Virus record (IMG/VR): IMGVR_UViG_3300031673_000014
Span: 17,146-81,145 of that record
Length of the DNA: 64,000 nucleotides
Origin: a virus
Reading direction: 5' to 3' (one strand)
Below are positions 42,916 to 61,050 of the stretch, piece after piece. The notes under the pieces were generated by a model, which saw nothing but the letters and a program-made list of their open reading frames with translations, ran no database searches and was not told the DNA's origin. The position numbers were made by a program, and so were the translations under genes. Each line of letters opens with the position of its first letter. The stretch's first letter is position 1.

Positions 42916-43013
42916 TTGCCTCGCATGAGGTAAAACATAAAAGAAATATTAAGAAGTGTTTTGAATTAGAACAAACAGGTTTCTGACGGTTTCTTATTAT
43001 GTAATTCTCCTTA

Positions 43014-43058
43014 GCCGGATCGATGAAGAGGCACTTCGGTGATCCGGCGTTTTTATTT
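43014..43058 (+). terminator. Intrinsic terminator closing ncRNA unit
   Basis: GCCGGATC...GATCCGGC followed by GTTTTTATTT. Confidence 0.75.
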
Positions 43059-43075
43059 CCAGAATCGGGGGATCT

Positions 43076-43570
43076 ATGGAATGTGAAAAATGTAACTATA
43101 TGGACAAAACCTGTACCATAGAGAGTCTTTATGGCATAGATCAATTAAAGTCATGCCCTTTCTTGAATGAGCCAGTGCTGAACGAATACGGTTGGCTTAT
43201 GAATCCGCCATTTACAGAGAAGTACCAATTATCTTCAGGTCATGTTTTTCTTATCCCGGAAAAGATAGATTCTAAATGGATTGTTCATTGGAGTTTATTT
43301 AAAGATGGGGCTGGAAGCTGCGGAAGATCAGAAATAGATTTATTTATCCTGGCATATAAAAAAGCAATAAAAGATTTATTGTCAACTTATAGGTTGACAG
43401 ATATTGACCGGGAAGAAATACAATATATATCTGATAATAAATTTGATAACAGAAGATCGTTTCTTCCGAGAGAAAACAAAATAGAAGAAATCCCCGAAAA
43501 AATTGAATACATAAGCCCGTTTTCGGATATGGAATTTGGGGAAATAGGAGATCAACTAGAATTGTTTTAA
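43076..43570 (+). CDS. Hypothetical protein (N-terminal Cys cluster, C-terminal QLELF)
   Basis: GGGGGA RBS; QLELF resembles a beta-clamp-binding motif. Confidence 0.6.
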   Translation: MECEKCNYMDKTCTIESLYGIDQLKSCPFLNEPVLNEYGWLMNPPFTEKYQLSSGHVFLIPEKIDSKWIVHWSLFKDGAGSCGRSEIDLFILAYKKAIKDLLSTYRLTDIDREEIQYISDNKFDNRRSFLPRENKIEEIPEKIEYISPFSDMEFGEIGDQLELF

Positions 43571-43612
43571 TTAGACTATTTACTATAATAAGGTATATTA
43601 AATTAAGGAGAC

Positions 43613-44044
43613 ATGAAGATGAAGAAAACAATTTACATTATTATTGATGGGTGTTATTCAGACTGGTTTATACATGGATATTTTAATGATATAGAAAAAG
43701 CTGAAAAATATGTTGTTTGGTATAATGCCAATCATAATGGGTATGGTGATGAGGCATACATTCAGGAACATGAACTACTTGAACCTGAAATAGATTACAA
43801 TGCTATTAAAGTTCTTAGGAATCACAAGGTTGTTTTTGATAAGCGTGGCAACTCATGGAACATGAGGAATGAACCTGATAGATATGATATATATACAGGA
43901 GTTAAAAAAAAGACTGTTTCTGGACTTTGGGCACATAAAAAACAGATATATCATGTTGAAGTAACAACACACGAAAGAAAAAAAGCTGAAAAAATAGCAC
44001 AGGATTTGTTATACAAATGGCTTGCTGAATCTAATGGACTATAA
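43613..44044 (+). CDS. Hypothetical protein (cassette 1)
   Basis: IYII..G.YSD..I.GYF...EKAE..V N-terminal pattern. Confidence 0.7.
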   Translation: MKMKKTIYIIIDGCYSDWFIHGYFNDIEKAEKYVVWYNANHNGYGDEAYIQEHELLEPEIDYNAIKVLRNHKVVFDKRGNSWNMRNEPDRYDIYTGVKKKTVSGLWAHKKQIYHVEVTTHERKKAEKIAQDLLYKWLAESNGL

Positions 44045-44093
44045 AAATAAGACTATTTACTATAATAAGGTATATTAAATTAAGGAGACAATA

Positions 44094-44297
44094 ATGAAAT
44101 ATCCGTACATACATAGCACATCAAAATTAAGGAAACATAAAGGGTTATGCAAAATATGCTTAGAGCCAAAATCTGACACAAGGGTTGATGTTGCTTTTAA
44201 TGTATTTAGAGGTGATGATAGTGTTTATACAGTACATAGAGATTGTTTGTATAATATTGGTAAAAAAGAATTTATTGAAAGATTATTTGTTAAATAA
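44094..44297 (+). CDS. Small Zn-binding hypothetical protein (cassette 2)
   Basis: CKIC...HRDC. Confidence 0.6.
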   Translation: MKYPYIHSTSKLRKHKGLCKICLEPKSDTRVDVAFNVFRGDDSVYTVHRDCLYNIGKKEFIERLFVK

Positions 44298-44333
44298 AAC
44301 AGCTACTATAATAAATAAAAGGAGACATACAAA

Positions 44334-44507
44334 ATAAGTAGAACTTACAAAGATAGACTTCCTAAAAAGTACAGGAAAGGATATTGCTGGCTTTCGGACT
44401 CATATAATAATAAAATTCTTAGGAGGCGCATTGAAAGAAGTGATATACAAAATGGTTCATCTTTTAAAAAACTAGCGAATAAATTAGATGAATATGCAGG
44501 AATGTAG
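44334..44507 (+). pseudogene. Cassette 3: 57-codon ORF with ATA in place of ATG
   Basis: AAGGAG-9nt-ATA AGT AGA ACT TAC AAA reads (M)SRTYK...; open to TAG 44507. Confidence 0.55.
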
Positions 44508-44545
44508 GACAAGTCTATTTACTATAATAAATAAAAGGAGACAAT

Positions 44546-44782
44546 ATGATTTGTGATAGAAATAGTGAAGACATAATTAAATGTCATGCTTACAATAATG
44601 GTGAGTGCATGAACAGTGTTACGTGCGGTGGAATTATGGCTACTTCTCCAATTAAAACCATTCATAACAGAGTTTTTTACAGTTCTATAATAGATCCAAC
44701 GTTATATCATTGCGAACATTCTACTGCAAAAATAAGCAAATATCCCTACTGCCCTTTTTGTGGCGAGAAAATAGATAAATAA
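44546..44782 (+). CDS. Small Cys-rich hypothetical protein (cassette 4)
   Basis: YCPFCGEKI C-terminus. Confidence 0.6.
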   Translation: MICDRNSEDIIKCHAYNNGECMNSVTCGGIMATSPIKTIHNRVFYSSIIDPTLYHCEHSTAKISKYPYCPFCGEKIDK

Positions 44783-44818
44783 AAAACCCCGTCCGGTTAA
44801 CAACACGAACGAGGTTTT
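44781..44818. terminator. Bidirectional terminator (better paired on minus strand)
   Basis: Minus strand AAAACCTCGTTCG...CGGACGGGGTTTTTT with G-U pairs. Confidence 0.75.
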
Positions 44819-44949
44819 AATCTTAAGAGTTATCCAACGTTTGTCTATTTCATAATTCCCCCTATAAGATATTTTTTAAACCGATTACTAATCTACCGGA
44901 TAACATCCGATTTATGTATAAAGTTAATCCCTTTAAATTGAGCTGTCAA
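44781..44949 (-). ncRNA. Small minus-strand transcript carrying AUG-AAA-UAG minigene
   Basis: TTGACA-17-TAACTT promoter (44949-44921), AGGGGGAATT-ATG AAA TAG (44853-44845), terminator. Confidence 0.5.
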
Positions 44950-45177
44950 GAACAAAAAATAAAAATAACCATTGATTAATACATGAAACGAGTATAAACT
45001 ATGTACAAAAGACAAAAAGGGGTAAGAAGTGAATGTAAAGACAGAATGCTATGGAGAAGTTGAAAAACTACTCATAGCACACCAGAAGAAGTATTTCTCG
45101 CATATAAAATCTACAGGGGCGTACTTGGTTGAAATGGCAAGGCAAAGAGCCGAAAAAGACATGAAGGGAGAATAGAA

Positions 45178-45579
45178 ATGGAAGTGGAAATCTATAAATA
45201 TGACAGCAAAGTAGAAATACCAAAATTTATGAATACTGGAAAAGAAAGGACTTCGATCCAATTTGAATTAAAAACCGGAGGGACTATTCGTTTTGAGATA
45301 AATAATATTCTTCAAAAAGAAAACTTTCTTGTATCATCGACTAATGCAAGAGAAAAAAGGACAGAGCTTGCAACTAATAATTTTTTGCTGGTCAAAGAAT
45401 CTTTGGGTAGGGAGTTCTGGGAGAAAAATAGATATTATTGTATAGCCGATAAAAAAATAAATGCAATACAAACGGAATCGGTTTTTAATAGCTATAAAGA
45501 TGAAGCAATTTACAAAATTAAATCTCTTAACCTGTTTCAGAGAATATTTATGTGGAAGAAATACACAAAGGGGGAATAG
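45178..45579 (+). CDS. Hypothetical protein with C-terminal FQRIFMWKK motif
   Basis: GGGAG RBS. Confidence 0.6.
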   Translation: MEVEIYKYDSKVEIPKFMNTGKERTSIQFELKTGGTIRFEINNILQKENFLVSSTNAREKRTELATNNFLLVKESLGREFWEKNRYYCIADKKINAIQTESVFNSYKDEAIYKIKSLNLFQRIFMWKKYTKGE

Positions 45580-46337
45580 TGAATCAGGACCAATTAAAAA
45601 TAAAACTTGATAGTTTTACAGAACATAAAGACTTCCAGGTTATCTTCTCCGGGAAGCACAGTACTAAAGTTGATGGAATATATAATCCCGAAAAACATGA
45701 AATAATAATTCACAACAAAAACTTTAGCGAAGAAAACGGATTAATGTATACAGCGATACACGAGCTGGCTCACCACATTGATTTTAAAGACAACCGGGAG
45801 AAAACTACCCGGAACGCACACGGGGGAGAGTTTAGAACAATATTCCATTTTTTACTTGAAAAAGCTATTGAGTCCGGAGACTACAAAGAATTTGAAGATC
45901 CCTTTCTTGATCAGGTAGTCGCGATAAACAAAGAGCATACCGTTTTCTTGAAAAAGTTCGGAAAAGCTTTGATTGCATTACTGGAAAAATGCCAGCAATC
46001 ATTCAATTTAAGCTATTTTGAAGACATTGTGGATCGTAAATTGTCTTTAAAATACGGACAGGCAAAAGAGATTATGGCCGTTTATGCAATGGATATATCC
46101 GAAGAGATCGGCGGGGAGTTCTCGAAAAAGGTAGCAAAGATAAAAGATCCTGCTGAGAGAAGAGAAGCCGAAGAAAAAGGTGAAATTCCTGTAAAGATAA
46201 AAACTGTTCTTTCCGGTCCGGAAAGCGAACTAGCTGAAGCTGAAAAAGCTCTGAGAAGAATTGAGAAGGCAATAGAAAACCTGGAAAGGAAAAGACAGGT
46301 CTATTTAGATCAAATTGAGGGGTATGAACATGAGTGA
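45579..46337 (+). CDS. SprT-like zinc metalloprotease domain protein
   Basis: MYTAIHELAHH...HGGEF HExxH motif; GTG start after GGGGGAATA. Confidence 0.75.
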   Translation: MNQDQLKIKLDSFTEHKDFQVIFSGKHSTKVDGIYNPEKHEIIIHNKNFSEENGLMYTAIHELAHHIDFKDNREKTTRNAHGGEFRTIFHFLLEKAIESGDYKEFEDPFLDQVVAINKEHTVFLKKFGKALIALLEKCQQSFNLSYFEDIVDRKLSLKYGQAKEIMAVYAMDISEEIGGEFSKKVAKIKDPAERREAEEKGEIPVKIKTVLSGPESELAEAEKALRRIEKAIENLERKRQVYLDQIEGYEHE

Positions 46338-46472
46338 TCAAGAAAAAAAAGCCAGAGAATATCTTAAAAAAAGAGAAGAAAGACTGTCCCAGAAAACAGG
46401 TACAATATTTCAATATAGTGGATATGAAGAGAATTTGATAATTCAGTCTTACATTTCCGGAATGGAGGCCAA

Positions 46473-46730
46473 GTGAAAGATAATAGCTTGGAAGCAAAGA
46501 CAGCAGCCGAAACAATAATGTCAATATGCACTGATTATCTCATGGGAGGGCAAAATACAGAGTCTTTCAAAAGAAATATAAGAATGTATAGCAAGTTTCT
46601 AAACCATGGAAAACACGCAATATCAAGAATTGAAAACATTTTCATTGATGGGTGGGAAAATGATGATAGTGGAAATCATTATGACATGCTGAAAAGCATT
46701 TCTGAGATAATAAAAGAGGGCAAAAGTTAA
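46473..46730 (+). CDS. Hypothetical protein
   Basis: GGAGG RBS, GTG start. Confidence 0.5.
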   Translation: MKDNSLEAKTAAETIMSICTDYLMGGQNTESFKRNIRMYSKFLNHGKHAISRIENIFIDGWENDDSGNHYDMLKSISEIIKEGKS

Positions 46731-46731
46731 A

Positions 46732-47577
46732 ATGAAAGATCTAAAATATTACGAAGAAAAACAGAAAAATCTACTTGAAAACACAATTAAGCTGGATCTC
46801 TTGAGGGGACCAGTTCCTATAACAGTGGATTGCACGATTGAAACAGAAGAAGATCTTGAAAAATCCTCTGTACAATTTGCTTTAAGGCGAACATGGCGAA
46901 GGGCTGCTCAGGTAGACTTTGAAAAGTCTCACGTCCCGGAGATGAGATTTATAAAACCTATGCCTGGATCATTATTAAACGGAATTCCTCTTGATGAAGG
47001 GATAATCCTGCCTATTTTCGCTGCCGACATGCTGGAGGATAGCGAAATTACAACAGCAATGATGATTGAGGGCTTAATTTTGCATCTTAAGCATGAATTT
47101 GATACTTATTACTACAGATTGCTCATATCGTTTGATCTGAGCGTTTTACCAGAGCAAATACAAGAAAAAATACAGGAATGGGGGGGAAGGTTGATGATTA
47201 AAGGTGAAATAAAAAAGTTAAAAGACATCGCAGACAGTGGCACAATAATAACGGTTTCAGGGATAGTAAACGAAATAGAATATGATGTAATTGAAGGTGG
47301 AAAAGAAAAGCTTAACCGGGGAAGTTTATTTCTCCTTTCCGGTACAAAAGCAATAGAAGTTGATGTTATAGTCGAAGTGTGGGGATCTCCTGGAATCTCT
47401 AAATCAGATACAAACCAGAGAAGATTGGTATCTCTCCCAATTAGGGAGACATTTCAAGCTAAAATATCACACATAAAAGTTAGCAGAGTAAACGGGTTAG
47501 ATTTCATATCAAGACTTTGGGTTTCTGTGGTTAGCGACTACTCAGAGAAGATACAGGAGAAAACCGAAAATGCATAA
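46732..47577 (+). CDS. Hypothetical protein
   Basis: 281 aa ORF in operon. Confidence 0.6.
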   Translation: MKDLKYYEEKQKNLLENTIKLDLLRGPVPITVDCTIETEEDLEKSSVQFALRRTWRRAAQVDFEKSHVPEMRFIKPMPGSLLNGIPLDEGIILPIFAADMLEDSEITTAMMIEGLILHLKHEFDTYYYRLLISFDLSVLPEQIQEKIQEWGGRLMIKGEIKKLKDIADSGTIITVSGIVNEIEYDVIEGGKEKLNRGSLFLLSGTKAIEVDVIVEVWGSPGISKSDTNQRRLVSLPIRETFQAKISHIKVSRVNGLDFISRLWVSVVSDYSEKIQEKTENA

Positions 47578-47830
47578 AACACCGAAAAGAAGAATGAGCA
47601 CAAGATATTTTCCGAATCGAGAAGTAACGGTCGGAGAGTACAAAATTTCAATAAACAGGACGGGAGCAGTATATCAGACTAATTGTCCCGGTCACAGAAA
47701 ACTTGATTCTATGTTTATCGGCGGAGCTCTCCATGTAGTTCTTCCGAATGAAGAAACCGTTGAGATAATCCAGAACGAAAAAGGTGAACTGGAAGAAAAG
47801 AAAATTGTAAAGACGGTTCCTGTAGTATGA
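47570..47830 (+). CDS. Hypothetical protein
   Basis: AGGAG RBS; overlaps. Confidence 0.5.
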   Translation: MHKTPKRRMSTRYFPNREVTVGEYKISINRTGAVYQTNCPGHRKLDSMFIGGALHVVLPNEETVEIIQNEKGELEEKKIVKTVPVV

Positions 47831-48144
47831 AAATATATCTTTCAGGTGGAATAACCAATGTAAAGAACTATGATGAAGTATTTCAGGCAGCCGAAACACT
47901 TCTTAACACAAAAGGAATGGACTCAAAAAGAATTTATATTTCAAAATCCAACCTGGAAGTAGTAAACCCGGTAAAACTTCCTCATTTCCATGATCATTCA
48001 TGGGAAGCATACATGAAAGAATGCATTATCACTCTATGTGATTGTCAAATGATTTATATGCTCAAAGGCTGGTGGAAGTCCAGGGGAGCAAGAATTGAAT
48101 GGATTACTGCTAAGATATTAAAAATTGAGGTAGAGTATCAATGA
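47827..48144 (+). CDS. DUF4406 (nucleoside 2-deoxyribosyltransferase-like) protein
   Basis: MKIYLSGGIT, VVNP, W--YMK-CI--L--C--IYMLKGW-KSRGARIE. Confidence 0.85.
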   Translation: MKIYLSGGITNVKNYDEVFQAAETLLNTKGMDSKRIYISKSNLEVVNPVKLPHFHDHSWEAYMKECIITLCDCQMIYMLKGWWKSRGARIEWITAKILKIEVEYQ

Positions 48145-48486
48145 TTGTTTGCTGTTTAAAATGCCGGACAGATAGAAAGAAGAAAGTGAGGATGATATTG
48201 AAAAGAAATCATGTATTTTGTCCGGTATGCAAAAGGGCGGTCAAGAGGAGAGTGTTATGAATTACAATAGAAAACTAAAAAAATCACAAAGACGGTACGC
48301 ATTACAAGAATTGCGTAGGATAGCCAAGATTAGAGATGAGCTTAAAAAAACATCCAACCCGGGGAGGAAATGAAATAATGACATATTTTTTTCTAGTTCT
48401 AATATTGGCCCAATTAGTGGCAATTGGAGTCTTTCTAATTGTAATTATTAACAAATTAGACCAGATTATTCACAGGAGAAATCAAA

Positions 48487-48948
48487 ATGAAAGATGATGA
48501 CTCAGGAACACAATCAAAGCAACCTTGTCCATGTTGTGGGGAAAGATTACCAGAAAACGGTAAAGAGCTTTGCAGTAGGTGTGATACCCTTCCCTCACAG
48601 TCAGAACTAGAATACAGCTCAGGGATGCCCTTAATGAAAGATGAAGAGATGAAACCATATAAAGACATTGCAATTCTACAAAGAGAAATGAATGATCAGG
48701 CTCAAGAGATTATTAACAGAGACAAAGAAATCTCTGAGCTAAAAGATATAATCTCAGTTCAAAAAGAAGATCTTGAAAATGTCAGATTGTTAGCTGTAGA
48801 GCTGAGAGAATGTAATAAAATACTCGCAAAATTTAATCTAAATAATGCAGGGAAGATAGCAGAATGGAAATCCGAATTCGAACGGGTAGATTCAGAAAAG
48901 GATGATTTACTAAAATTGGTTGAAGATTTAAGAGAAGAACCAAGATGA
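48487..48948 (+). CDS. Zn-ribbon + coiled-coil hypothetical protein
   Basis: CPCCG...CSRC then heptad repeats. Confidence 0.6.
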   Translation: MKDDDSGTQSKQPCPCCGERLPENGKELCSRCDTLPSQSELEYSSGMPLMKDEEMKPYKDIAILQREMNDQAQEIINRDKEISELKDIISVQKEDLENVRLLAVELRECNKILAKFNLNNAGKIAEWKSEFERVDSEKDDLLKLVEDLREEPR

Positions 48949-49044
48949 ATAAATTAAAACAGATCTTAAGCGATATGGGATATTTCTTCTCCCGATGGTG
49001 TTCAAATGCACTCATAAGCTATCTAAGCCCGAAAAGGAAAAAGA

Positions 49045-49275
49045 ATGGCTGATAAAACTCTTTGTAACGATTGCGGAAATGAAGTAAAATATATTAATAC
49101 CAGAAAAGAGGGTATACTCAAGTGTGTATCTTCTACGGTAAAAGCAGTACAAGAATCAGGAAGGATAATAGAGGTATTTTTAATTCATGAATGTAACAAT
49201 AGGTCACTTGATGAAACATCTATCGGAGAAGTTAAAGAAAGGAAACTATGGGTCGGTCCTGATACACATCCGTGA
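49045..49275 (+). CDS. Small Zn-binding hypothetical protein
   Basis: CNDCG...HEC. Confidence 0.5.
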   Translation: MADKTLCNDCGNEVKYINTRKEGILKCVSSTVKAVQESGRIIEVFLIHECNNRSLDETSIGEVKERKLWVGPDTHP

Positions 49276-49510
49276 TGGCGTCATTACCGGAGTCAAAGAT
49301 AATATTGAATGGAATGCCGATTCTTTTGTAGAATTTGTAGAAAATGCACAAAAACCAATAACTCGTTATGTAGTAAAGAATAAAAAGAACGAAATGCCCG
49401 AAAATGACGTAAAAATAGATACAATTGAAGTTATGATTATACCAACTGAAAGCATTAATGCGAAAAAATTGCATAATGATGCTATTATTTTACCGGATGA
49501 AAAAGAATGA
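49187..49510 (+). CDS. DUF2292/YezD-like small protein
   Basis: NYGSVLIHIRDGVITGV motif. Confidence 0.45.
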   Translation: MNVTIGHLMKHLSEKLKKGNYGSVLIHIRDGVITGVKDNIEWNADSFVEFVENAQKPITRYVVKNKKNEMPENDVKIDTIEVMIIPTESINAKKLHNDAIILPDEKE

Positions 49511-49612
49511 TATCGAATAAACCGTTATTGAGTAAGAAAATAAAAATATGCATTATAGACATTAGTAATGTATTTAATTATAACAAAATAAAAAACGGGG
49601 GAATTGTTTAAA

Positions 49613-50311
49613 ATGGCGTGTAAAATCTGTAATGACAAAAAACTACCCCTTATCAACAGGATGATACTAGATAATGCCCCGAATACCGCTATAGTAAAAA
49701 GATTTGGATATGATCCCAGAACAATAAAAAAGCATAAAAAAAACTGTATATCAGAATCAATTTTAAAAACTGCTCAAGCCCGGGAGATAATTGCTTCTTC
49801 TGCTTTGCTGGAAAACGTAGAATCTAAAATAGAAATGATGGACAAGTTAATCGAGGGCTGCGCCGACTACCTGGTAGATCCAGATGATCCTAATAAATAT
49901 TTTCTAGGTGCACGGGGATCAGAAATTCAGGTTGTTTATCAAGAAATTAACGAAAACGGGAAACCCGGGACACTTCAGAAAAAAGCTACCCTTCAGGCTC
50001 TCTTAGATGCCATTTCAGAAGATGGTCACTACATTGTGATGAATACTACAATAAAGCATTCTGATCCCAGGGATCTTCTTTTAAAGGGTATTTCAGAATT
50101 AAAATCGGTTGCAAAAATGTTGATTGATGCAAGTCAGGTCGTAATAGAACACGAGCGCCTTAATTTAGCGTATGAGCGAATATCTAAAGAGGGCGGTTCT
50201 ATATCAATAGAAAAAGAAATATCCTCTTTAACAGAGAGAATAACCATTGCCCTTAAAGGGAGCAATACAGAGGAATTATCAAAACTTGCCGGACTGCCGG
50301 ATCTGGACTAA
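49613..50311 (+). CDS. Putative terminase small subunit (HTH)
   Basis: MACKICN...INRMI...IVKRFG...IKKHKKNC N-terminus and helical C-terminus. Confidence 0.45.
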   Translation: MACKICNDKKLPLINRMILDNAPNTAIVKRFGYDPRTIKKHKKNCISESILKTAQAREIIASSALLENVESKIEMMDKLIEGCADYLVDPDDPNKYFLGARGSEIQVVYQEINENGKPGTLQKKATLQALLDAISEDGHYIVMNTTIKHSDPRDLLLKGISELKSVAKMLIDASQVVIEHERLNLAYERISKEGGSISIEKEISSLTERITIALKGSNTEELSKLAGLPDLD

Positions 50312-50319
50312 AATTATGC

Positions 50320-50348
50320 TTGATTAAATTACTAATCGGGTGTATTCT
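50320..50348 (+). promoter_or_regulatory. Promoter with CTAATCGNNTG motif
   Basis: TTGATT-17-TATTCT with CTAATCGGGTG. Confidence 0.7.
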
Positions 50349-50366
50349 TTTTATCAGGGGGAATAT

Positions 50367-50678
50367 GTGAAAGCAGAGAAAATAATATCTAATTACATAG
50401 CTGAGTTTGATCGGTTGACAAATACCGAAGAGAAATTCTCAGGGAATAAACAGGGTGAGGATCACTTGAATAGTTTTGTTTGTCCAGACTGCCGGGACAT
50501 TCTTATAAATCAGGGCGACGCTCTTTTTTGTGAAAATCCTGAATGTAGTAACACCGAAAGGTATGAATATACTTACATGAAGATTACTGGAAAGCCAACC
50601 TTTACCATAGAAAAAGATTTTCCAGATCCCTTGAAAGAAATATATGATATTGATCCGATGATGGTGAAAGATGACTGA
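50367..50678 (+). CDS. Zn-ribbon hypothetical protein
   Basis: CPDC...CENPEC; GTG start after CAGGGGGAATAT. Confidence 0.6.
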   Translation: MKAEKIISNYIAEFDRLTNTEEKFSGNKQGEDHLNSFVCPDCRDILINQGDALFCENPECSNTERYEYTYMKITGKPTFTIEKDFPDPLKEIYDIDPMMVKDD

Positions 50679-51066: not shown

Positions 51067-51226
51067 TTGTTTATCATACTGCAAAGATACCGGGAAATGT
51101 AATTCAAGAGAAAGTTCATGCTTCTATAAGAGCATGGATAATTTAAACTGTAAATCAAAGGGAGTTGTCCCTGAAATAAAAAACCATGATTATTATCATA
51201 ACAGAGCAAGGGGGGAATGAAACGAT

Positions 51227-51867: not shown

Positions 51868-52009
51868 GAAGGGTAATAAATGTGGTAATATCAGCAATAG
51901 CACCCGTTGTACTTCATAATGACATGTCAGTTTATCAAACTATGATGCTTTATTTGGCTTGTCTGTTTGTTTTAAATTCAATTGATTTTATGTATGGAGA
52001 TACAAAAAA

Positions 52010-52192: not shown

Positions 52193-52530
52193 GAAACCCT
52201 ATAGATGTTAATAAAATAGAATTAGTAGATTTCCATAAACTATTCGATAAAATATGGACGGAAGATATTACAGATGAAGATGAAATGATGTTTTTTAAGT
52301 TCTATAAAGCAGGGGTAAATATTCATAAAGAATATTATAGAAAACTAGAATCATACTGCGAGAAGCTTGAAAAAGATAAAGAGATTGCGGTTGAGATATT
52401 GGGTGAAGTATTACAAGATGCTGATTCGTTATATATGCAGCTTCAACATGCTCAAGACAATCCACCACCTACCGTTAATTATTTTAAAAAAGAAAAAGAA
52501 ATACTTCGGAAACTAAGGAGTGAATTGTGA
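52189..52530 (+). CDS. Hypothetical protein
   Basis: ATGA overlap; AAGGA RBS. Confidence 0.5.
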   Translation: MRNPIDVNKIELVDFHKLFDKIWTEDITDEDEMMFFKFYKAGVNIHKEYYRKLESYCEKLEKDKEIAVEILGEVLQDADSLYMQLQHAQDNPPPTVNYFKKEKEILRKLRSEL

Positions 52531-52684
52531 TTGAAGCAAGATGTTTGGTTTGTGGTTCCCCAATGGGAGAGTTGATGACTCATTTATCATCACGTAATCA
52601 CGAAGGGAGAGAGACAGAATGTTGCTCAGAAGAATGTGAAGAAATATACTATGACCAAGAAGAACAATGGCAAGAGGAGCAAAA

Positions 52685-53191
52685 ATGAATAATGAAGTTA
52701 ACTGTGATAATCCAGAATGTAGAGACGGTAAGATTGGGTATGGGCTAAATGATAATGTTATTAAACCATGCCCCGATTGCACAGACCAAGAGGAAAAGAA
52801 TGATTTAATAATAAAATTAAAAGATAACGACCCTGCGAAAGATTGGTATAATAAATTAACTGAATCTGAAAAAACAATTTTTTATGCGGGATACAAGCAT
52901 CAATCAGTAAAACTAAAACAGCAAGCCGAAGAGATTGAGTCAAATAAGGCATTTTTAAGTTATTATTCTAAAAAGATTACAGAGTTAAAAGAAGAGATTG
53001 AACAGCTAAACAAAGAAAAGGTTCATTACTTTGATATGACTGTTAAACTTAAAGAACAAATAGAATCAATGAAGTGCTGCGGGAATTGCGGAAATGAAAA
53101 GTATTACTATACGGATAAAAGAGTGTGTAATGTTGGGGTACAAGACTGTTTACCTGGATGGCGAAATAAATGGAAATCAATATTATTATAG
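52685..53191 (+). CDS. Cys-cluster/coiled-coil hypothetical protein
   Basis: GAGGAG RBS; IESMKCCGNC motif. Confidence 0.6.
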   Translation: MNNEVNCDNPECRDGKIGYGLNDNVIKPCPDCTDQEEKNDLIIKLKDNDPAKDWYNKLTESEKTIFYAGYKHQSVKLKQQAEEIESNKAFLSYYSKKITELKEEIEQLNKEKVHYFDMTVKLKEQIESMKCCGNCGNEKYYYTDKRVCNVGVQDCLPGWRNKWKSILL

Positions 53192-53202
53192 GTGAGGGGA
53201 GA

Positions 53203-53409
53203 ATGGAAGATTTATATAAAGAATTTTTAAAACAAAACGGATATCCAGAACCAACCGAAATAAATCTTATTAGCATTAAAAGACCTAATATAGATCCTAA
53301 GCTAAATAATATATATTCTAAATCTATTCAATGTGGAATGACTAATTATAGATTTAAGAATTTTATGGATCATATAGAGTCTATTGTTGATGGTGAGGGG
53401 AGAGAGTGA
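53203..53409 (+). CDS. Hypothetical protein
   Basis: GAGGGGAG RBS. Confidence 0.45.
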   Translation: MEDLYKEFLKQNGYPEPTEINLISIKRPNIDPKLNNIYSKSIQCGMTNYRFKNFMDHIESIVDGEGRE

Positions 53410-53527
53410 GATGATAATGGCAGCTGCAATAAAACATGATGGTGTAGTTTAGTACATGATTTTATTGAATCAAAAGATATTGAAAAAGAACTTGTAAAAT
53501 ACTTAGAAGAGCATAAGGATAATAATC

Positions 53528-53896
53528 ATGATTGACGATAAAATGAAAAAAATAATTAAAGATATAAAATATCTTGTTAATGAATTAGAATTTGAATATA
53601 AGAATACAAATAATAAAGAGTTCCATCATCATAAAAAATATCAAGATTACAAATTGGGGTCTGATATTTTAAACGAACTAACAAGACTTATGATTGGGTT
53701 TGATATTGAAAAACTAGAAGATAAAAATGAATTATTAAAATGTTACAAAATTATAAACACTTGCTACGATCTTTTAAGTGATTCCATACATTCATTAAGA
53801 GAATCAGATACATTCGAGCAAGAGTTACTTTCAGGCGGCATAATGTATTATATAGATACTATTGAAATCACAAAAATACGAGAGTATATAAAATAA
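53528..53896 (+). CDS. Hypothetical protein
   Basis: AAGGA RBS; very AT-rich. Confidence 0.5.
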   Translation: MIDDKMKKIIKDIKYLVNELEFEYKNTNNKEFHHHKKYQDYKLGSDILNELTRLMIGFDIEKLEDKNELLKCYKIINTCYDLLSDSIHSLRESDTFEQELLSGGIMYYIDTIEITKIREYIK

Positions 53897-53956
53897 AATA
53901 GGTTTATTTAAATTAGGAGAGGATAAGGCAAAAGCACTATCCAAACTAAGGAGTGA

Positions 53957-54541
<585 letters not shown>

Positions 54542-54554
54542 AAGAGGAGCAAAA

Positions 54555-54851
54555 ATGAATAATGAAGTTAGATGTGAAACATGTGGTGGTAAAGAATATT
54601 GCTATAGAGATAAATTAAATATGATAGATAGGGATACCTGTAGAGATAATCAATTTAATGACTATTGGCCGGAAGGAACTATTCAACCCGATTGCACAGA
54701 CCATCAGACAGAGGATGATCAGATAAATATAGAGGATAAATTATATATTATATGGAAAGATGGGTTTGATTCAGAAAATCTTAGTCAGTATGAGTTTAAT
54801 GATGATATATGCAAGCTTGAAGAAAGCGTGCAAGAGAAGCCGGATTTTTAA
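54555..54851 (+). CDS. Hypothetical protein, partial paralogue of 52685..53191
   Basis: Identical 29-bp RBS/start and shared PDCTD block. Confidence 0.55.
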   Translation: MNNEVRCETCGGKEYCYRDKLNMIDRDTCRDNQFNDYWPEGTIQPDCTDHQTEDDQINIEDKLYIIWKDGFDSENLSQYEFNDDICKLEESVQEKPDF

Positions 54852-55008
54852 TGAAGATGAATCAAACACTGAATAAAGACATAACTTTATTTGACAAAAA
54901 AGAGATTGATCGATTATGGTGTGAAGTATAGAGTGAATAGGTAAAACTTATGACCACGATTGACATAAAGAATAGATTCGGTTATATTTATCTGAAAGGT
55001 GGGTAAAT

Positions 55009-55701
55009 ATGAAAAATATAGTTATTTTAAATGGGAACTCTGTTTACACGACAACTCTTATAATAGCTGAGGGTGTTGGTAATGATCACAGGAATGTAAT
55101 GAGGTTGCTTAAAAGGTATTCAAGTACAAAGATTCTTTCGACCTTTGAAACCGCAAAAGTATCAAATGGTGGTAGACCTGTAGAATATGCTATTCTAAAT
55201 GAAACACAAGCTACATTTTTAGTCACTCTTATGAACAACTCTGAAATAGTGGTGTTGTTTAAGGAAGCTCTTACAAATGCGTTTGTGAGGCAAAGAGAGA
55301 TTATTTCAGGGCTTATTCAACAAAGAAAAGATCCAGACTGGCAAAATATAAGAAAGGATGGAAAGACCGTATACATTCAAAAGACGGATATAATAAAAAG
55401 ATTTGTAGACTATGCTACAAGTCAAGGAAGTAAGTCAGCTAAAATGTATTATATGAATTTTGCAAAAATGGAGAATTCTGCATTATTTTTCTTTGAACAA
55501 AAATATAATAACCTCCGAGAGATAATGACGATCAAACAATTAATGCAAGTAGCTACTGCCGATAGCGTAATTGAAAAGGCTATCCAAGATGGTATGGAAT
55601 CTGAAATGTATTACAAGGATATATATAAACAGGCAAAAGAGAGAATTATATCGTTTGCAGAGATTATAGGAAGATCGCCAATATTGGCACTGGGGGAATA
55701 G
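55009..55701 (+). CDS. Rha-family phage regulatory protein
   Basis: TTTLIIAEG...H.NV, GGRP...LNE-QATFL-TLM-N...V-FK..L...F. Confidence 0.85.
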   Translation: MKNIVILNGNSVYTTTLIIAEGVGNDHRNVMRLLKRYSSTKILSTFETAKVSNGGRPVEYAILNETQATFLVTLMNNSEIVVLFKEALTNAFVRQREIISGLIQQRKDPDWQNIRKDGKTVYIQKTDIIKRFVDYATSQGSKSAKMYYMNFAKMENSALFFFEQKYNNLREIMTIKQLMQVATADSVIEKAIQDGMESEMYYKDIYKQAKERIISFAEIIGRSPILALGE

Positions 55702-55702
55702 A

Positions 55703-55885
55703 ATGTCATATGAGTATGATCTAATTAAAGACAAATTGGAAGAAATCAGAGCTGCCGAAGAGAACGGAAAACTTGAGTTAAACGACTGGGAGATAAACTT
55801 CATTGATGGTGTTTATGAAAATTATAAGTGGACCGGCGCTCAGGAAGATAGAATAAAATTAATTCACAATAGGATTGAGTCATGA
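55703..55885 (+). CDS. Hypothetical protein
   Basis: LNDWEINFI motif; GGGGGA RBS. Confidence 0.55.
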   Translation: MSYEYDLIKDKLEEIRAAEENGKLELNDWEINFIDGVYENYKWTGAQEDRIKLIHNRIES

Positions 55886-56091
55886 ATTTGTATGATGAAA
55901 AAGATTTTGAGGATGCAGCCGATAAACCGCCATTAGGATTAACACCTATCAAAAACTGGGAGCAGGGCAAAGATAAAGAACGTATAGCCGATATAGTCGA
56001 TGCAATGACCCGGTACTCGGAAAACGAAAAGGTGATCCCTCTTGACTGGATAAGCGAGCTGTGGGGCAGGGTTACAAACCTGGGGGGATAA
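55882..56091 (+). CDS. Hypothetical protein
   Basis: KPPLGLTP...RI..I..AM.RY...IP..W..EL pattern. Confidence 0.6.
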   Translation: MNLYDEKDFEDAADKPPLGLTPIKNWEQGKDKERIADIVDAMTRYSENEKVIPLDWISELWGRVTNLGG

Positions 56092-56610
56092 ATGAACATA
56101 CAAGATAAGATTTTAAAATTACTAAAAGAAAAACCTATGAGCCGAATTGCAATTGTAAAGGCAATTCCTGAAGAAATGGCTCATGCGGTCAATGGTAATC
56201 TAAACGCTTTGTTGATCGGTAGTAAAGTTATATATGATGGTATAGGTTATTCTATTGCACCGAAACTAAGCAAATATAGAAATGTAAAAACAGAAGTTGA
56301 CGGTATTAAGTTTGACTCAAAAGGCGAAGCCGGGCGATATCAGAAATTGCTTTTACTGGAAAAGGCCGGAATGATTACAGACCTTAAAAGACAGGTGCCG
56401 TTTATTATTGCTGATGCTGTTAAATGGGACGGTAAGGTTATCAGGGCTAAAAAATATGTCTGTGATTTTGCTTATACTGATATAAGTACTGCAGAAATAA
56501 AGAAAGTTGTGGAAGATTTTAAGGGTAAAAAGACAGATTTGTATTTACTTAAAAGAAGTCTATTCTTGAATAGATACCCGGAATATTGGTTTCGGGAGAC
56601 AGAAAAATAA
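56092..56610 (+). CDS. DUF1064 PD-(D/E)xK nuclease with N-terminal wHTH
   Basis: SKYRNVKTEVDGIKFDSK-EA-RY, YVCDF-Y, VEDFKG. Confidence 0.85.
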   Translation: MNIQDKILKLLKEKPMSRIAIVKAIPEEMAHAVNGNLNALLIGSKVIYDGIGYSIAPKLSKYRNVKTEVDGIKFDSKGEAGRYQKLLLLEKAGMITDLKRQVPFIIADAVKWDGKVIRAKKYVCDFAYTDISTAEIKKVVEDFKGKKTDLYLLKRSLFLNRYPEYWFRETEK

Positions 56611-56622
56611 TAGGAGACAAAA

Positions 56623-56862
56623 ATGCCAGTAGGTGAAATTAAATTAAGAACCATAAAAGTATCAGGTAGTTACCAGTCTTTCTCTAAAGGGGAAGATGTT
56701 AAAATAACAGATGAAAATGGAAATATAATCTATGCTGAAGGTCTTGATATTACAATGGGAGTTCATGGAGAGTTTAATAAAGCTGTTCTTCGTGAAATTG
56801 TTGGGATTGAATTTTGTGGTGAAATTGAAAATACAACCAATAAAAAAAGAAATCCCCGGTAA
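56623..56862 (+). CDS. Hypothetical protein
   Basis: AGGAG RBS. Confidence 0.5.
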   Translation: MPVGEIKLRTIKVSGSYQSFSKGEDVKITDENGNIIYAEGLDITMGVHGEFNKAVLREIVGIEFCGEIENTTNKKRNPR

Positions 56863-56923
56863 AGAAATGGAGCTTAATCGTGAATAATGGGGGAATACCC
56901 ATAAAAATATTATAGGAGTGTTT

Positions 56924-57066
56924 ATGAGTGAAGGAACAGCAAAGACTATGAGTTTCGGTGAAGCTTTAGAGGTTTTAAAAAAAGGGCATAAAGTAGCAAG
57001 GTGGGGTTGGAACGGTAGCTGGCAAGCCAGACAGATATCCTGGCTGAAGATTGGGTGGGTGTATGA
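56924..57066 (+). pseudogene. Internally deleted DUF2829/Tad2-like anti-defence gene
   Basis: MSFGEALEVLKKGHKVARWGWNG fused out of frame to LASQTDILAEDWVGV*. Confidence 0.8.
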
Positions 57067-57338
57067 AGCATTTAGAGATTATTGAATCAATAAAAAAACT
57101 GAACAATAAGATTGATCAGTTAGAAGGGTTTGTGAGTCGTATTGAAGATGATTCGCCGACATGTTTAACTGGTGATGACAGAAAAGAAGAAGACCCTCTT
57201 TCAATGAGCCAGTTTCTTTCCGGGGGTGGTCGAGTTTTAATAGAACATCTTAATGATAGAGTTGATCATATCCATAAAAAACTATCAGATCTGCTAGAAG
57301 GAACTAGAGATATAGTAATAGATAAGCCAGAAAAATAA
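57063..57338 (+). CDS. Hypothetical protein
   Basis: ATGA overlap with the original stop of the DUF2829 remnant. Confidence 0.55.
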   Translation: MKHLEIIESIKKLNNKIDQLEGFVSRIEDDSPTCLTGDDRKEEDPLSMSQFLSGGGRVLIEHLNDRVDHIHKKLSDLLEGTRDIVIDKPEK

Positions 57339-57343
57339 TTTAA

Positions 57344-57447
57344 TTGACAATCCAAGTGAAAGGATATAATGTTAATTTGGTTTTCATAATTTTCCTTTAT
57401 TTATTTTTACATTAGTCCCGGTTAGTGCAGCCGGGGCTTTTTCTTTT
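57344..57447 (+). ncRNA. Candidate small RNA with anti-AUG/anti-SD tract and terminator
   Basis: TTGACA..TATAAT promoter, TTTTCATAATTTTCCTTT, hairpin AGTCCCGGTT/AGCCGGGGCT plus T run. Confidence 0.45.
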
Positions 57448-57515
57448 ATAATCATCCAAGTATTTAGTCTCAAATTTAACAAGATAAATCAGGGCTTTTT
57501 TTATCCGCAAATAGT

Positions 57516-59132
57516 GTGTATAATGATTTTATGTGGACAGGTGAACAAAAAGTTGTCGTAGCAACGGCAGCACTAACGACAATGAATCCAGAGTTTAAAC
57601 TCGACTTCTGGCAGGACTGGTATTTAAAGTCCAATGAAAGATTTTTAGTTGTCAATAAGAGCCGTCGTATTGGATGGTCTTATATTACTTCTTTGAAGAG
57701 TGTAGTCGAAGCAAATTCCCCGGATGTCTATAAATATCAGAATGTTTTCGTTTCGTATGGTATGAACGATGCCATAGGAAAAATATCCGATGCCAGAAAT
57801 GCGTTAATGAATCTTCCGGACCGGTGGAGAAAAGAAATATCTTCTGATTCTAAAACATCACTTGAATTTTGGGATAAAGACAGAAAAAGTAAATCTCAGC
57901 TTATATCACTCCCTAATCGTACACTGAGGGGTTTTGGTACTTCTAATCCTTTCGGGGGAATCAGTCTCGATGAATTCGCTTTTCATCAAGATGATAAGAA
58001 AGTTTACGAATCAGCTTTACCGTGTCTCACAAGGGGCGGTTTGCTGTCAATTGGATCAACTCCTTTAGCAAAGGCCGGAATGTTTTATGATATCCTTTCT
58101 GACAAAGATAAATATGCGAGGTATCAAAGATTAAATATTCCCTGGTGGTGGGCTTCTGCTCTGTGTATCGATGTAAATACAGCTCTTAAAATAGCGCCTG
58201 ACTTAACCACGTGGGAACGGGTTGATCAATTCGGAACTGATATTTTAAAAGAAATATTCTCTTCTATGGGATTATCATCTTTTAAACAGGAATTTGAATG
58301 TGAATTCACCGATGAGTCCGAAGCTTTCATAACACTCGAAATGATTAAGTCCTGTACTCCTCAGCAAGTAGAACAGTATGAATATCAAAATATTGCTGAA
58401 TTACTCAATGGTGTAGATATTCCTGAAATATGTACCGGGTTTGATCCAGACGGACAACCGATATTTGAATCGGTAACAGCTCCGGCCTATGATCCTGAGA
58501 TCCATGGTGTGTTATTTGCCGGGTGGGATATGGGAAGGACTAAAGACGCTTCTGTATTTACATTAATCGGATATAAAGACGGGAAATTTCATGTCTGGAT
58601 GTCATACGAATTAAAAAATACTCCATTTGATGAACAGAAAGAATTTGCTTCTCTGGCATTGTCTTCACTTCCAATACAACAATTTTTAATAGATAAGAAC
58701 GGTCTCGGTATGGACTTTGCGGAATGGGCTGAAAAGAAATTTCCGACTATTGCTCATGGTGTCCAGTTTACCAACGAAACTAAAGAAGTTATGGCCAATA
58801 AAGTTTACCTGGGATGTGAGCGAAGAGAATATGTTTTCCCGATGAACAAAAAACTTCATGCAGATATCCATTGTATAAGAAAGACTCTTACTGCAATGAA
58901 ATTCAATAAGTATGATGGAAGTACCAAAGACTCTCATGCAGACCGTTTCTGGAGCTTGGCGCTTGCTACAATGGGAATTACGACAGAGAATAGTAATATA
59001 TCTCAATTTTATTCTCAGTATAGGAAAAATAAGGGTGAAACTAAAAAGAGTGTTAGAATATCGACAGGGAATCCCGAATTAGATAGAATCAAAAGAATGG
59101 TAAGAAGGGGTAATAGGCATGGTAGACGGTAA
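57516..59132 (+). CDS. terL: Terminase large subunit
   Basis: VNKSRRIGWS, ISLDEFAF, STP, FKQEFECEF, GWDMGRTKD, IDKNGLG, HADRFWSLALA. Confidence 0.92.
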   Translation: MYNDFMWTGEQKVVVATAALTTMNPEFKLDFWQDWYLKSNERFLVVNKSRRIGWSYITSLKSVVEANSPDVYKYQNVFVSYGMNDAIGKISDARNALMNLPDRWRKEISSDSKTSLEFWDKDRKSKSQLISLPNRTLRGFGTSNPFGGISLDEFAFHQDDKKVYESALPCLTRGGLLSIGSTPLAKAGMFYDILSDKDKYARYQRLNIPWWWASALCIDVNTALKIAPDLTTWERVDQFGTDILKEIFSSMGLSSFKQEFECEFTDESEAFITLEMIKSCTPQQVEQYEYQNIAELLNGVDIPEICTGFDPDGQPIFESVTAPAYDPEIHGVLFAGWDMGRTKDASVFTLIGYKDGKFHVWMSYELKNTPFDEQKEFASLALSSLPIQQFLIDKNGLGMDFAEWAEKKFPTIAHGVQFTNETKEVMANKVYLGCERREYVFPMNKKLHADIHCIRKTLTAMKFNKYDGSTKDSHADRFWSLALATMGITTENSNISQFYSQYRKNKGETKKSVRISTGNPELDRIKRMVRRGNRHGRR

Positions 59133-60612
59133 TCAGTTTAGAGAAGCAATGCAAAAAGCTGTTAAAAAGGATCAGAGAAAAGAAGAGTTAAAATCGAAAC
59201 TTATTGATCCAAGATATAGAGGATATCAAAGAGGGCTTTTGAGTCCGGAAAAATCCTATTCAATGCAATTGTTCAGGAGAATTTCAGAAAAAGCATGGTT
59301 AATAAATGTCGTAATAGGACATATTATTGATAAAACAATTCCTTATATGAGACCGGAATCGGCAAGAGGGTCCAGATATTTCGATATAGAATTGAAAGAT
59401 CCGGACAAAAAGCTTACCGATAAGCTTAAAAAAAGAGCTATGGAAATTCAGGAATTCTTTCTTCAAACAGGCTGGGATAGACTTAATCCAGACCGGGAAG
59501 ATGACCTACCCCATTACACGAAAAAGATTTTAAGAGATCTTCTCACCTTAGACCAGGTTGCAGCCGAAAAGGTAAAAACGTATAGCGGAGACATGCATTC
59601 GTTTTATGCCATAGATGCAGCTACTATCTTAAGATGTACTGAAGAGGGCTATGAGGGCGACGATAAGATTAAATTCGTTCAAATGATCCAGTCTCAAATA
59701 GTTTCTACTTATCATGCCGGACAAATAATATTTCAATTTGACAATCCCCGGACTGATGTACTTCATTATGGATATGGATATTCAAAAATAGAACAGTGTG
59801 TTGGATTGATCATATCTTCAATTAATACTTTTGCTTTCAATGCCGGAGCGTTTACAGAAGACAAACTCCCCCGGGGTATGCTACTCCTCAATGGCGATAT
59901 TGGTATGGAAGAAGTCGAAGAGATAGAAGACTATCTAATCGACGTTATGGGTCCCGATGGAATATCAGGAGCTACCGGCCGGTGGGGGATCCCGATTATC
60001 CCTTCCGGGAAAAGTGGAGACAAAAGTTCTATTTCATGGCAACCAATGGGAAATTCCAATCAGGAAATGCAATATAGCCGATGGCAAGACTTTCTTAACA
60101 TGGGAATAGCCGCCATTTACGGTGTAGATATAGAGTCAACCGGGATAAAGAACGAAAAGGGCGCTAAAATCATGGAATCGGGCTCTGCCGAAGCTCATAA
60201 GTATTCTGATGATAAAGGTATAGGTAATGCCTTAACGTTCTTAGAACGTCATTTTCAGACCATCCTGGATGAAATAGATCCTCAGTTCCGTTTTGTCTTC
60301 CATGGTTTTGAACAGGACGATGCAAAAGAAATGAGAGACGCTACTAAATCAGAGCTTGAAAGTAGTAAATCTCTTAATGAACTGAGACTGGAAAAAGATT
60401 TAAAACCAGTTCCTTTCAAGTTTGCCGATGTTCCGGGATTACAGAATCCTCAGTATTTACAAGCTTATCAGGCCGAAGTCGGTGGAGGTGAAGAAGAGGG
60501 TGCTCCCGGGGGAGATCCCGGAGCTGAAGATCAAGGGATGGATGAGTTTGATCAGGGTTTTGATGATTTTGAAAAATCAATGAATAACGATATTATAACA
60601 ATTGTTATATAA
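59119..60612 (+). CDS. Portal protein
   Basis: RDLLTLDQ, FYAIDAATI, NPRTD..YGYS.IE, SLNELR motifs; after terL. Confidence 0.9.
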   Translation: MVDGNQFREAMQKAVKKDQRKEELKSKLIDPRYRGYQRGLLSPEKSYSMQLFRRISEKAWLINVVIGHIIDKTIPYMRPESARGSRYFDIELKDPDKKLTDKLKKRAMEIQEFFLQTGWDRLNPDREDDLPHYTKKILRDLLTLDQVAAEKVKTYSGDMHSFYAIDAATILRCTEEGYEGDDKIKFVQMIQSQIVSTYHAGQIIFQFDNPRTDVLHYGYGYSKIEQCVGLIISSINTFAFNAGAFTEDKLPRGMLLLNGDIGMEEVEEIEDYLIDVMGPDGISGATGRWGIPIIPSGKSGDKSSISWQPMGNSNQEMQYSRWQDFLNMGIAAIYGVDIESTGIKNEKGAKIMESGSAEAHKYSDDKGIGNALTFLERHFQTILDEIDPQFRFVFHGFEQDDAKEMRDATKSELESSKSLNELRLEKDLKPVPFKFADVPGLQNPQYLQAYQAEVGGGEEEGAPGGDPGAEDQGMDEFDQGFDDFEKSMNNDIITIVI

Positions 60613-60621
60613 AGAAGTATA

Positions 60622-60724
60622 TTGACAACCAGCCCTATAGAATATATCTTTAAAGCATGGATGAGCTTGCTCTCCTACCCCGGCAACATATTCCCCTGAA
60701 TCTGAAAGCCGGGGTTCTTTATTT
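60622..60724 (+). ncRNA. Candidate small RNA with anti-RBS loop
   Basis: TTGACA-17-TATCTT; CTCTCCT; ACCCCGGC/GCCGGGGT hairpin whose loop holds CATATTCCCCTGA; T-rich tail. Confidence 0.5.
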
Positions 60725-61038: not shown

Positions 61039-61050
61039 AGGAGAAAACCC

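Follow-up and report, generated by a model that had tools for sequence, protein, structure and literature searches.

A predicted small RNA unit with an anti-Shine-Dalgarno loop behind the portal gene of an uncultured phage and its relatives

Phage P22 and phages P1 and P7 encode small RNAs of about 70 nt, sar and c4, respectively, that base-pair through their loops with the ribosome-binding site of a phage gene; the sar transcript is antisense to the gene it regulates, and the sites on which c4 acts lie in its own operon. Phage T4 controls translation by the proteins RegA and RegB, and to our knowledge the small RNAs of virulent or uncultured phages are poorly known. In Listeria monocytogenes, LhrC carries CU-rich UCCC motifs in its loop A, in a single-stranded linker and in its terminator loop, all of which bind the Shine-Dalgarno (SD) region of the target, and these redundant motifs (CUCCC...UUUU) pair with the G-rich SD and block initiation (PMC4132741). 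The short StxS transcript, which runs from PR' and is ended at tR', can still regulate as an RNA (PMC7547250). Here we analyzed a window of 64,000 nucleotides from an uncultured phage (bases 17146-81145 of the 81,145-bp contig of IMG/VR record IMGVR_UViG_3300031673_000014; G+C 36%), for which an original prediction made from the letters alone had proposed that three pyrimidine-rich tracts, each placed at a GC-rich terminator, belong to one family of trans-acting small RNAs directed against ribosome-binding sites. The three sites proved to be different in nature: site 3, directly after the portal gene, is a conserved predicted RNA unit, site 2, before the terminase gene terL, is a looser promoter-terminator unit, and site 1 is an ordinary transcript end. 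The observation is partly confirmed, and the sequences lend partial support to its interpretation as trans-acting small RNAs.

Site 3 spans 60622-60734 on the plus strand, and we predict, on what we consider solid grounds, that it is a conserved small non-coding RNA unit, hereafter called type B. Transcripts, promoters and RNA ends are predictions from sequence throughout this work. The first promoter, P_a (60622-60650), begins 10 nt past the portal stop codon and consists of TTGACA (60622-60627), 17 nt and TATCTT (60645-60650), a 10/12 match. The predicted RNA of about 66 nt would extend from 60657 to 60722, both ends being inferred (fold -23.6 kcal/mol, z=-3.35). It folds into hairpin 1 (60659-60675), formed by GGAUGAGC and GCUCUCC, and a terminator hairpin (60677-60715, -17.9 kcal/mol) with a lower stem ACCCCGGC/GCCGGGGU, a 4-bp upper stem AUUC/GAAU (60690-60693 and 60698-60701) and, in the minimum free energy (MFE) fold, the apical loop CCCU (60694-60697), which lies inside AUAUUCCCCUGAAUC. 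A U-rich tail and the conserved block TATAATACTTT (60724-60734) close the unit (60716-60734). A second promoter, P_b (TTGACA-N17-TATATT, 11/12), follows together with the SD GGGGGAA (60798-60804) and the ATG (60808) of a 76-amino acid (aa) gene, the whole lying at 60756-60810. No Rfam family reached its gathering score in the window and the permissive scans of the sites and of the relatives gave nothing credible, the matches at sites 1-3 being at chance level (ncr982 with E=6.5, CyaR with E=3.8 and PsrR1 with E=0.085, or 25.6 of 42 bits); the covariance models of LhrC and RsaE likewise gave no match at gathering score.

Conservation was analyzed in relatives taken from IMG/VR (L001-L007 and L033), from metagenomes (L011, L015 and L016) and from a contig of a GTDB metagenome-assembled genome (MAG) labelled Spirochaetaceae (L049, which is contig 47 of G002; 84 kb; 83,956 bp), with terL identities to the window of 63-80%. 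Two of them were examined over their full length, namely G001 (87.8 kb, with terminal repeats), of which L004 is a part, and G002 contig 47. Among isolated phages, a megablast search with 56900-61100 gave no match and the best relative by terL, Brevibacillus phage Emery, is only 34% identical. G002 contig 47 is a near-complete relative of the phage, and its place in a Spirochaetaceae MAG bin, which could be an artefact of binning, hints only weakly at the host. A search for sequencing runs that contain window 52500-62000 yielded six DNA runs (soil, sediment and subsurface) and no RNA run, which speaks neither for nor against expression.

In G001 the type-B module (L004:10145-10333) shows the order TTGACA, -10, small hairpin, terminator hairpin with AUAUUCCCCCGAAUC, tail TTCTTTTTTTATAATACTTT, second promoter and GGGGGAAUUAAUG start, and its TTGACA overlaps the stop codon of an upstream gene that is not the one found in the window. 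Between the window and G001 the core of the unit, from GCTCT to TATAATACTTT, shows 81% identity; the values are lower in the genes for terL, portal and the 367-aa protein (68-71%) and lowest at their third codon positions (48-49%). The loop block ATATTCCCCNGAATC is identical in G001 except at N, as is, without exception, the TATAATACTTT block. The pairing of hairpin 1 is kept in G001 by changes on both strands (GGA/UCC to AGAA/UUCU), which indicates that CTCTCCT at 60670, originally listed as an anti-SD tract, is paired as the 3' strand of this hairpin. Both apices are formed by the 4-bp AUUC/GAAU stem, with the loop CCCU in the window and CCCC in G001. The comparison with the relatives revealed no conserved open reading frame (ORF) on either strand of the unit. 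Two candidate ORFs were rejected: a leaderless plus-strand ORF of 23 aa from 60657, the predicted +1, has no ATG and a stop codon in the loop in G001 and is absent in L001 too, and a minus-strand ORF of 106 aa (60577-60897) has no family match and is absent in G001 and L001.

The type-B design was found at one position in six lineages (window, G001, L001, L005, G002 and L003), with the portal module, including optional methylase or moron genes, on one side and the conserved 367-aa gene on the other. A P_a-like promoter, TTGAC[AC]-N17-TAnnnT, stands at the equivalent place in G001, L003, L001 and L005, and G002 has TTGACA with a poor -10 (TAATAT at 18 nt), so that P_a is clear in five of the six. 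The gene whose stop codon precedes this promoter is a different one in each of the window, G001 and L003, and in L001, L005 and G002 the TTGACA lies within conserved C-terminal codons of an upstream 143-aa protein. The MFE folds gave pyrimidine loops of 12-15 nt in L001 (hairpin 1 UUACCUCCUUUU, terminator UUAUUCUCCUUU), L005 (hairpin 1 UUUCCUCCUUUU, terminator UUAACUCCUUUU), G002 (hairpin 1 UUUCCCUUCUCUUU, terminator UUUUACUCCUUUUCG) and L003, where the loop is that of the terminator (..UUUUCCCCUUU..) and hairpin 1 is not pyrimidine-rich. The stems are unrelated between lineages (GGAGGCAG/CUGCUUCU, AUAG/CUAU, CCCCUUUGAGAG/CUCUCAAAGGGG and CCCCCGG/CCGGGGG), and while they turn over the loops stay CU-rich and near the anti-SD sequence. 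Anti-SD 5-mers are enriched in the units relative to same-length genomic samples (P=0.008 in the window, 0.005 in L001, 0.003 in L003, 0.009 in L005 and 0.027 in G002), and other terminators of these genomes are without such pyrimidine loops. Downstream of the hairpin, the tail TTTATTTATAA is common to the window, L001, L005 and L011, and P_b is also present after the terminator in G001, L001, L005 and L011.

A covariance model built from the window and G001 units recovered only these two in 275 kb of relatives, which indicates that the other lineages resemble them in design and position and are not alignable. Because MAFFT moved the stems of L001, L005 and G002 by one column, compensatory changes were taken from the individual folds only. 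Scans of IMG/VR returned G001 as the sole match to the loop pattern and eight matches to the tail pattern, all unrelated, and a search with the 367-aa protein yielded no further upstream regions. Taken as a prediction from these comparisons, site 3 is a well-supported candidate for a new family of phage RNAs that would belong to a known functional class, the anti-SD small RNAs.

The complementarity of the tracts to translation starts was analyzed with a set of 127 window start regions and shuffled tracts as a control (60 per tract). An 11-mer complement anywhere on the whole plus strand is expected by chance. Within the start regions, however, an 11-mer complement to the site 3 loop has P of about 0.016, and its best duplex energy was outdone by none of the 60 shuffles. 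The original prediction had singled out for this loop (AACATATTCCCCTGA at 60685) a target at 50354 (TCAGGGGGAATATGT). The 11-nt perfect core does exist, against 50358-50368, and it lies inside a true start region, that of a 103-aa gene (TCAGGGGGAATATGTG, 50354-50369; SD GGGGGAA, GTG at 50367). This region is nevertheless not a special target: it ranks third to sixth of the 127 start regions, and the loop fits the general GGGGGAAU start consensus of about 24 genes. When these 24 genes with G-rich SDs were examined as a possible early class, twenty were located in the non-structural part of the genome, a mild enrichment, and they showed no size difference. Two of the top-ranked window targets are the starts at 43076 and 55703, whose G001 orthologues rank second and first, respectively, of 130 for the G001 loop; this shared ranking may reflect merely the conservation of GGGGGAAU starts. 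In L001, AAAGGAGAAUA is present in two of the eight listed starts and fits loop 2, which is suggestive of a relation between the flavors of loop and SD in this lineage.

From the features, folds, conservation and shared position, which the sequences support, we infer that the RNA is produced with about these ends and acts in trans on such targets. We tentatively favor the reading that type B is a putative trans-acting anti-SD small RNA like LhrC and RsaE, a reading to which we give slightly less than an even chance. A strong promoter of host type right behind portal would fire into a terminator about 66 nt further on, and in the resulting RNA a small hairpin at the 5' end would be followed by a long terminator hairpin, whose tip displays the C-rich loop (CCCU in AUAUUCCCCUGAAUC). 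This loop is complementary to purine-rich SDs, above all to the GGGGGAAU variant. It would touch the SD of the target, the 4-bp AU stem beneath it would open and the duplex would lengthen, and binding of 30S to the target mRNA would be blocked, the RNA acting in trans, in the manner of the CU-rich small RNAs LhrC, RsaE and RNAIII. The terL gene and the 367-aa head gene, which start at their promoter without an SD, would escape this control.

Several points weigh against a target-directed RNA of this kind. The apical loop of the window is just 4 nt long. Any C-rich loop pairs with G-rich SDs, so that the complementarity is generic and not target-specific, and the flavor of the loop does not clearly follow that of the SD, since SDs of the GGGGGAA and of the AAGGAG type occur in the window as well as in G002. 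Compared with shuffles the G001 loop is marginal (P=0.15 for the best match and P=0.07 for the top five), and the G002 loops do not pair with start regions above shuffles, in a comparison whose query contained stem G's, which weakens the control. The TTGACA of L001, L005 and G002 lies inside a conserved C-terminus, so that coding constraint may account for its conservation in these lineages. In L011, which is nearest to the window by terL (80%), the terminator, the tail and P_b are kept, and neither a clear P_a nor a pyrimidine loop is present. Finally, promoters and RNA ends are predicted, and expression of the RNA is presumed from them.

The generic nature of the pairing also bears on the idea that the CU-rich loops are a protein decoy or a mimic of the 16S tail, which would bind S1, a nuclease or a toxin, or mask SDs globally. 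The L001 loop contains ACCUCCUUU, which we take to be the conserved 3' tail of 16S rRNA, several redundant loops per RNA are each near the anti-SD consensus, and G001 and G002 show no target-specific complementarity outside the SD core; leaderless late genes would be unaffected. On the other hand, the loop of the window and G001 is a CCCC variant with the flanks AUAUU and GAAUC, which is not 16S sequence, global masking would call for a demanding amount of RNA, and no candidate protein was identified. We regard a decoy or mimic as improbable. One could also imagine that the clade combines SD-masking RNA loops similar to the 16S tail, acting on host and early phage mRNAs, with leaderless late genes (terL and the 367-aa gene) in a late switch that diverts ribosomes from SD-led to leaderless translation; we consider this unlikely.

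The loop might instead act in cis, if transcripts reading through from P_a folded it onto the next SD (60798-60804) and were silenced while those from P_b were translated. In the window and G001 a pairing of 7-8 bp between the loop and the downstream GGGGGAAU is indeed possible, the U tract contains an interruption (UUCUUUAUUU), and another G001 leader, described below, has a clear cis anti-SD pair (CCUGCCUUUU and AAAAGGCAGG). In L003, however, the downstream gene is leaderless and without an SD, and the downstream genes have their own P_b, which argues that the unit is not a cis anti-SD element for its neighbor. Moreover, the downstream start fits the loop poorly in L005 and lies outside the top six targets of the loop in the window, the best match in L001 is a gene 1.5 kb upstream, and the alternative pairing falls far short of the terminator hairpin in stability. 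A cis leader is in our view very improbable.

The favored reading, a trans-acting anti-SD RNA, places type B beside LhrC and the other CU-rich or UCCC small RNAs of low-GC Gram-positives (RsaE/RoxS, RNAIII, SprD and FsrA), with which it would share its own promoter, two stem-loops and a G-poor sequence, all predicted here. The two-loop layout of LhrC is found exactly in the RNAs of L001, L005 and G002, whereas those of the window and G001 show one CCCN loop. Type B differs from this class in that it has no sequence or covariance-model similarity to it, is phage-encoded, in single copy and at a fixed place in the head-gene region, and its host is not necessarily a Firmicute, one relative having been binned with a Spirochaetaceae MAG. 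It resembles StxS and the lambda 6S RNA in that transcription from a phage promoter runs directly into a terminator at the start of the late genes (PMC7547250), but here the downstream genes have their own promoters and the RNAs, of 60-110 nt, carry anti-SD loops. Unlike sar and c4, the units described here overlap no target and match the generic SD. If true, a conserved RNA at a fixed position that mirrors ribosome-binding sites would be a compact case of phage translation control by RNA and not by protein, and the position of type B beside apparently leaderless genes suggests a link of SD masking with leaderless translation.

The leaderless arrangement itself is well conserved. In terL, TATAAT (57519-57524) is followed after 6 nt by the ATG (57531), without a Shine-Dalgarno sequence (57519-57533, plus strand). 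The same geometry, with the same N-terminus MWT, was found in 10 of 11 relatives, the exception being L049, in which terL is led by an SD or translationally coupled. The 367-aa head gene shows it in all five genomes (window, G001, L011, L003 and G002). The leaderless starts are located at 57519-57533 and 62634-62672 in the window, at L001:380-397, at L003:905-926, at L004:6000-6018 and 10830-10877 in G001, and at L011:4985-5003 and 9885-9928. As terL and the 367-aa gene have no SD, the units before them cannot be cis anti-SD elements; the terminators before such leaderless promoters may shield them from read-through.

Site 2, the type-A unit, is a second conserved unit of promoter, short U-rich RNA and terminator, located before the leaderless terL. 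Its sigma70-type promoter, expected from the original prediction as was that of site 3 (TTGACA at 57344 and TTGACA-N17-TATCTT at 60622, respectively), is present. This promoter, P1 (57344-57370, plus strand), combines TTGACA (57344-57349) with TATAAT (57365-57370) at a spacer of 15 nt or with TAATGT (57367-57372) at 17 nt; because of the 15-nt spacer it was absent from the automated promoter scan and was assigned by direct reading. The predicted type-A RNA (57377-57448) has a U-rich, G-poor 5' part with the tract TTTTCATAATTTTCCTTT (57381-57398), a terminator hairpin (57414-57438, -15.6 kcal/mol; z=-2.8 for the whole unit) and a U tract. The same architecture, a promoter, a U-rich and G-poor RNA of 35-55 nt and a terminator, was found in five of twelve lineages (window, L004, L011, L015 and L033), with TTGAC[AG] at the equivalent place behind different upstream genes in the last four; the other seven lineages have no type-A unit. 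The tract itself fared less well. Its proposed partner at 34693 (GGAAAATTATG) is a real start region, that of the gene at 34701, but the 11-nt match is at chance level among the 127 start regions (P=0.16), and its duplex energy is marginal (outdone by one of 60 shuffles). A CC-containing tract occurs in the type-A RNA of the window, L004 and L033 only, and pairing of the G001 RNA with start regions does not exceed that of shuffles (P=0.48). The anti-SD tract is not conserved, and a role of type A in SD pairing is consequently doubtful. Between the unit and terL the window contains an orphan terminator 3' arm with a T run (ATAAATCAGGGCTTTTTTTAT, 57484-57505, plus strand), which aligns with the 3' arm of the single terminator of the relatives, indicating that the window has about 60 nt extra there.

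These data raise the question of whether both units serve only as punctuation, the terminators closing the upstream operon and shielding the next promoter, with promoter RNAs that are functionless by-products and loops that have no role in trans. Shielding would matter most for leaderless genes, in which read-through would bury an SD-less AUG, and in several lineages a terminator does lie 20-190 nt upstream of each leaderless promoter. The most widely shared part of the type-B module is the tail TTTATTTATAA plus P_b, L011 has kept its terminator and P_b without an anti-SD loop, and the type-A sequence is barely conserved (58% identity between the window and G001). However, punctuation does not account for the near-consensus promoter that directly precedes the terminator behind three different genes, for a loop block that exceeds coding DNA in conservation or for large loops that stay pyrimidine-rich as the stems turn over, and seven lineages have a leaderless terL without any upstream terminator. 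We consider punctuation alone somewhat unlikely, although it is the most probable of the rival readings; if it holds, the clade offers a clear picture of the shielding of late leaderless promoters.

The same succession of promoter and terminator could represent an antitermination cassette of the lambda PR'-tR' type, in which transcription is stopped at the terminator until a phage factor permits late read-through and the short RNA is a by-product, perhaps with a second job. Such units do occur where the late genes are entered: one precedes terL, one follows portal and one lies at window 1765-1862, and small unannotated proteins are encoded just upstream. Against this, a further promoter (P2 or P_b) follows every unit, those of terL and at 60756 being conserved in relatives, and a read-through transcript could not express terL, which has no SD. 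No Q-like Pfam or PHROG match was found in the neighboring proteins, the rest of the genome not having been searched. A boxA/nut reading of GCUCUCCU was rejected, the boxA-like GCUCU motif being found in the window and G001 only, where it is a strand of a hairpin that has a U tract. These points make antitermination, like the cis leader, a very improbable explanation.

Site 1 is of a different nature. The tract AATTCTCCTT (43003-43012) lies beside a terminator (43014-43048, -20 kcal/mol) at the 3' end of a longer unit (43003-43048, plus strand). No promoter was found between this terminator and a tRNA-like element at 42843-42915, and site 1 is the terminator of an upstream ORF-free, tRNA-like transcription unit and no stand-alone RNA gene. 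The longest start-region complement of the tract is 8 nt (P=0.84), and its best duplex is not above shuffles. In G001 the homologous terminator (44564-44597) is preceded by CUCUUAUGCUUUU and has no anti-SD tract. The tRNA-like element lies in an 864-nt stretch without a credible ORF (42212-43076); ARAGORN calls it tRNA-Leu(AAG), and the Rfam tRNA model gives no match even at E<=10. The 54-nt block right upstream of it is 91% identical to G001:77765-77818, and the G001 element has an insertion of about 40 nt. As at the other two sites, the hairpin is stable and followed by a U tract, so all three GC-rich terminators are real features, and the strings from which the original prediction started were each found at their places in the window.

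A fourth element, absent from the earlier list, is TTTCATAATTCCCCC (44848-44862, plus strand), a perfect 15-nt complement of the start consensus GGGGGAATTATGAAA (P<0.001). Its minus strand reads SD-ATG-AAA-TAG and is followed by a bidirectional terminator (44777-44823), and 44777-44862 might represent a minigene of two codons or what remains of an inverted gene start; the element is not conserved in G001 or G002. It belongs with a further explanation, in which minus-strand mini-peptides (MKTKLTLYPFTWIVN, MLPG and an M-K-stop at 44852) would have their ribosome-binding sites in the tracts; for the first two peptides the original prediction had named this as a refuting alternative. In the window the reverse complements do read as an SD, 4-5 nt and an ATG, and a 16-aa minus-strand ORF in L033 shares LTLY. 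The MLPG start, however, has no ATG in G001 and L001, which removes this alternative for site 3, and no ATG or ORF exists at the homologous places in G001, L001 or L011. LTLY and IV(N/S), the residues in common, are what the promoter hexamers TATAA and TTGACA give when read in reverse, and the promoter scan reported no minus-strand promoter there. Minus-strand peptides are hardly credible as the true product.

The window genes lie almost all on the plus strand. Its terL (57531-59132) and portal (59119-60612) genes, both on this strand, were assigned with PHROGs, and upstream of terL are a Rha-type regulator at 55009 and a DUF1064 resolvase at 56092. In a 55-aa ORF at 56918-57085, similarity was found to the N-terminal portion of the Pfam domain Tad2-like (Thoeris anti-defence 2; E=3.3e-7, 31.2 bits with a cut-off of 25). 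Between the type-A unit and terL, G001 has five tRNA genes (Leu-TAA, Leu-TAG, Ser-TGA, Ser-GCT and Tyr-GTA; L004:5533-5955), whereas the window has none.

Two other leaders were observed. At window 1765-1862 a strong hairpin lies downstream of a TTGACA-N17-TAAAAT promoter and separates an SD-like GGGAG from the ATG (1860) of a 497-aa gene. This arrangement is kept in both complete relatives (G001:5010-5090 and G002:C47:10370-10445); it may split the ribosome-binding site or act as a regulated terminator. In G001, the leader of the 321-aa gene after portal (L004:9083-9184) contains the pairings GGGGGAUAA/UUAUCCCC and CCUGCCUUUU/AAAAGGCAGG, the latter of which would sequester the downstream SD, making a cis translational switch possible.

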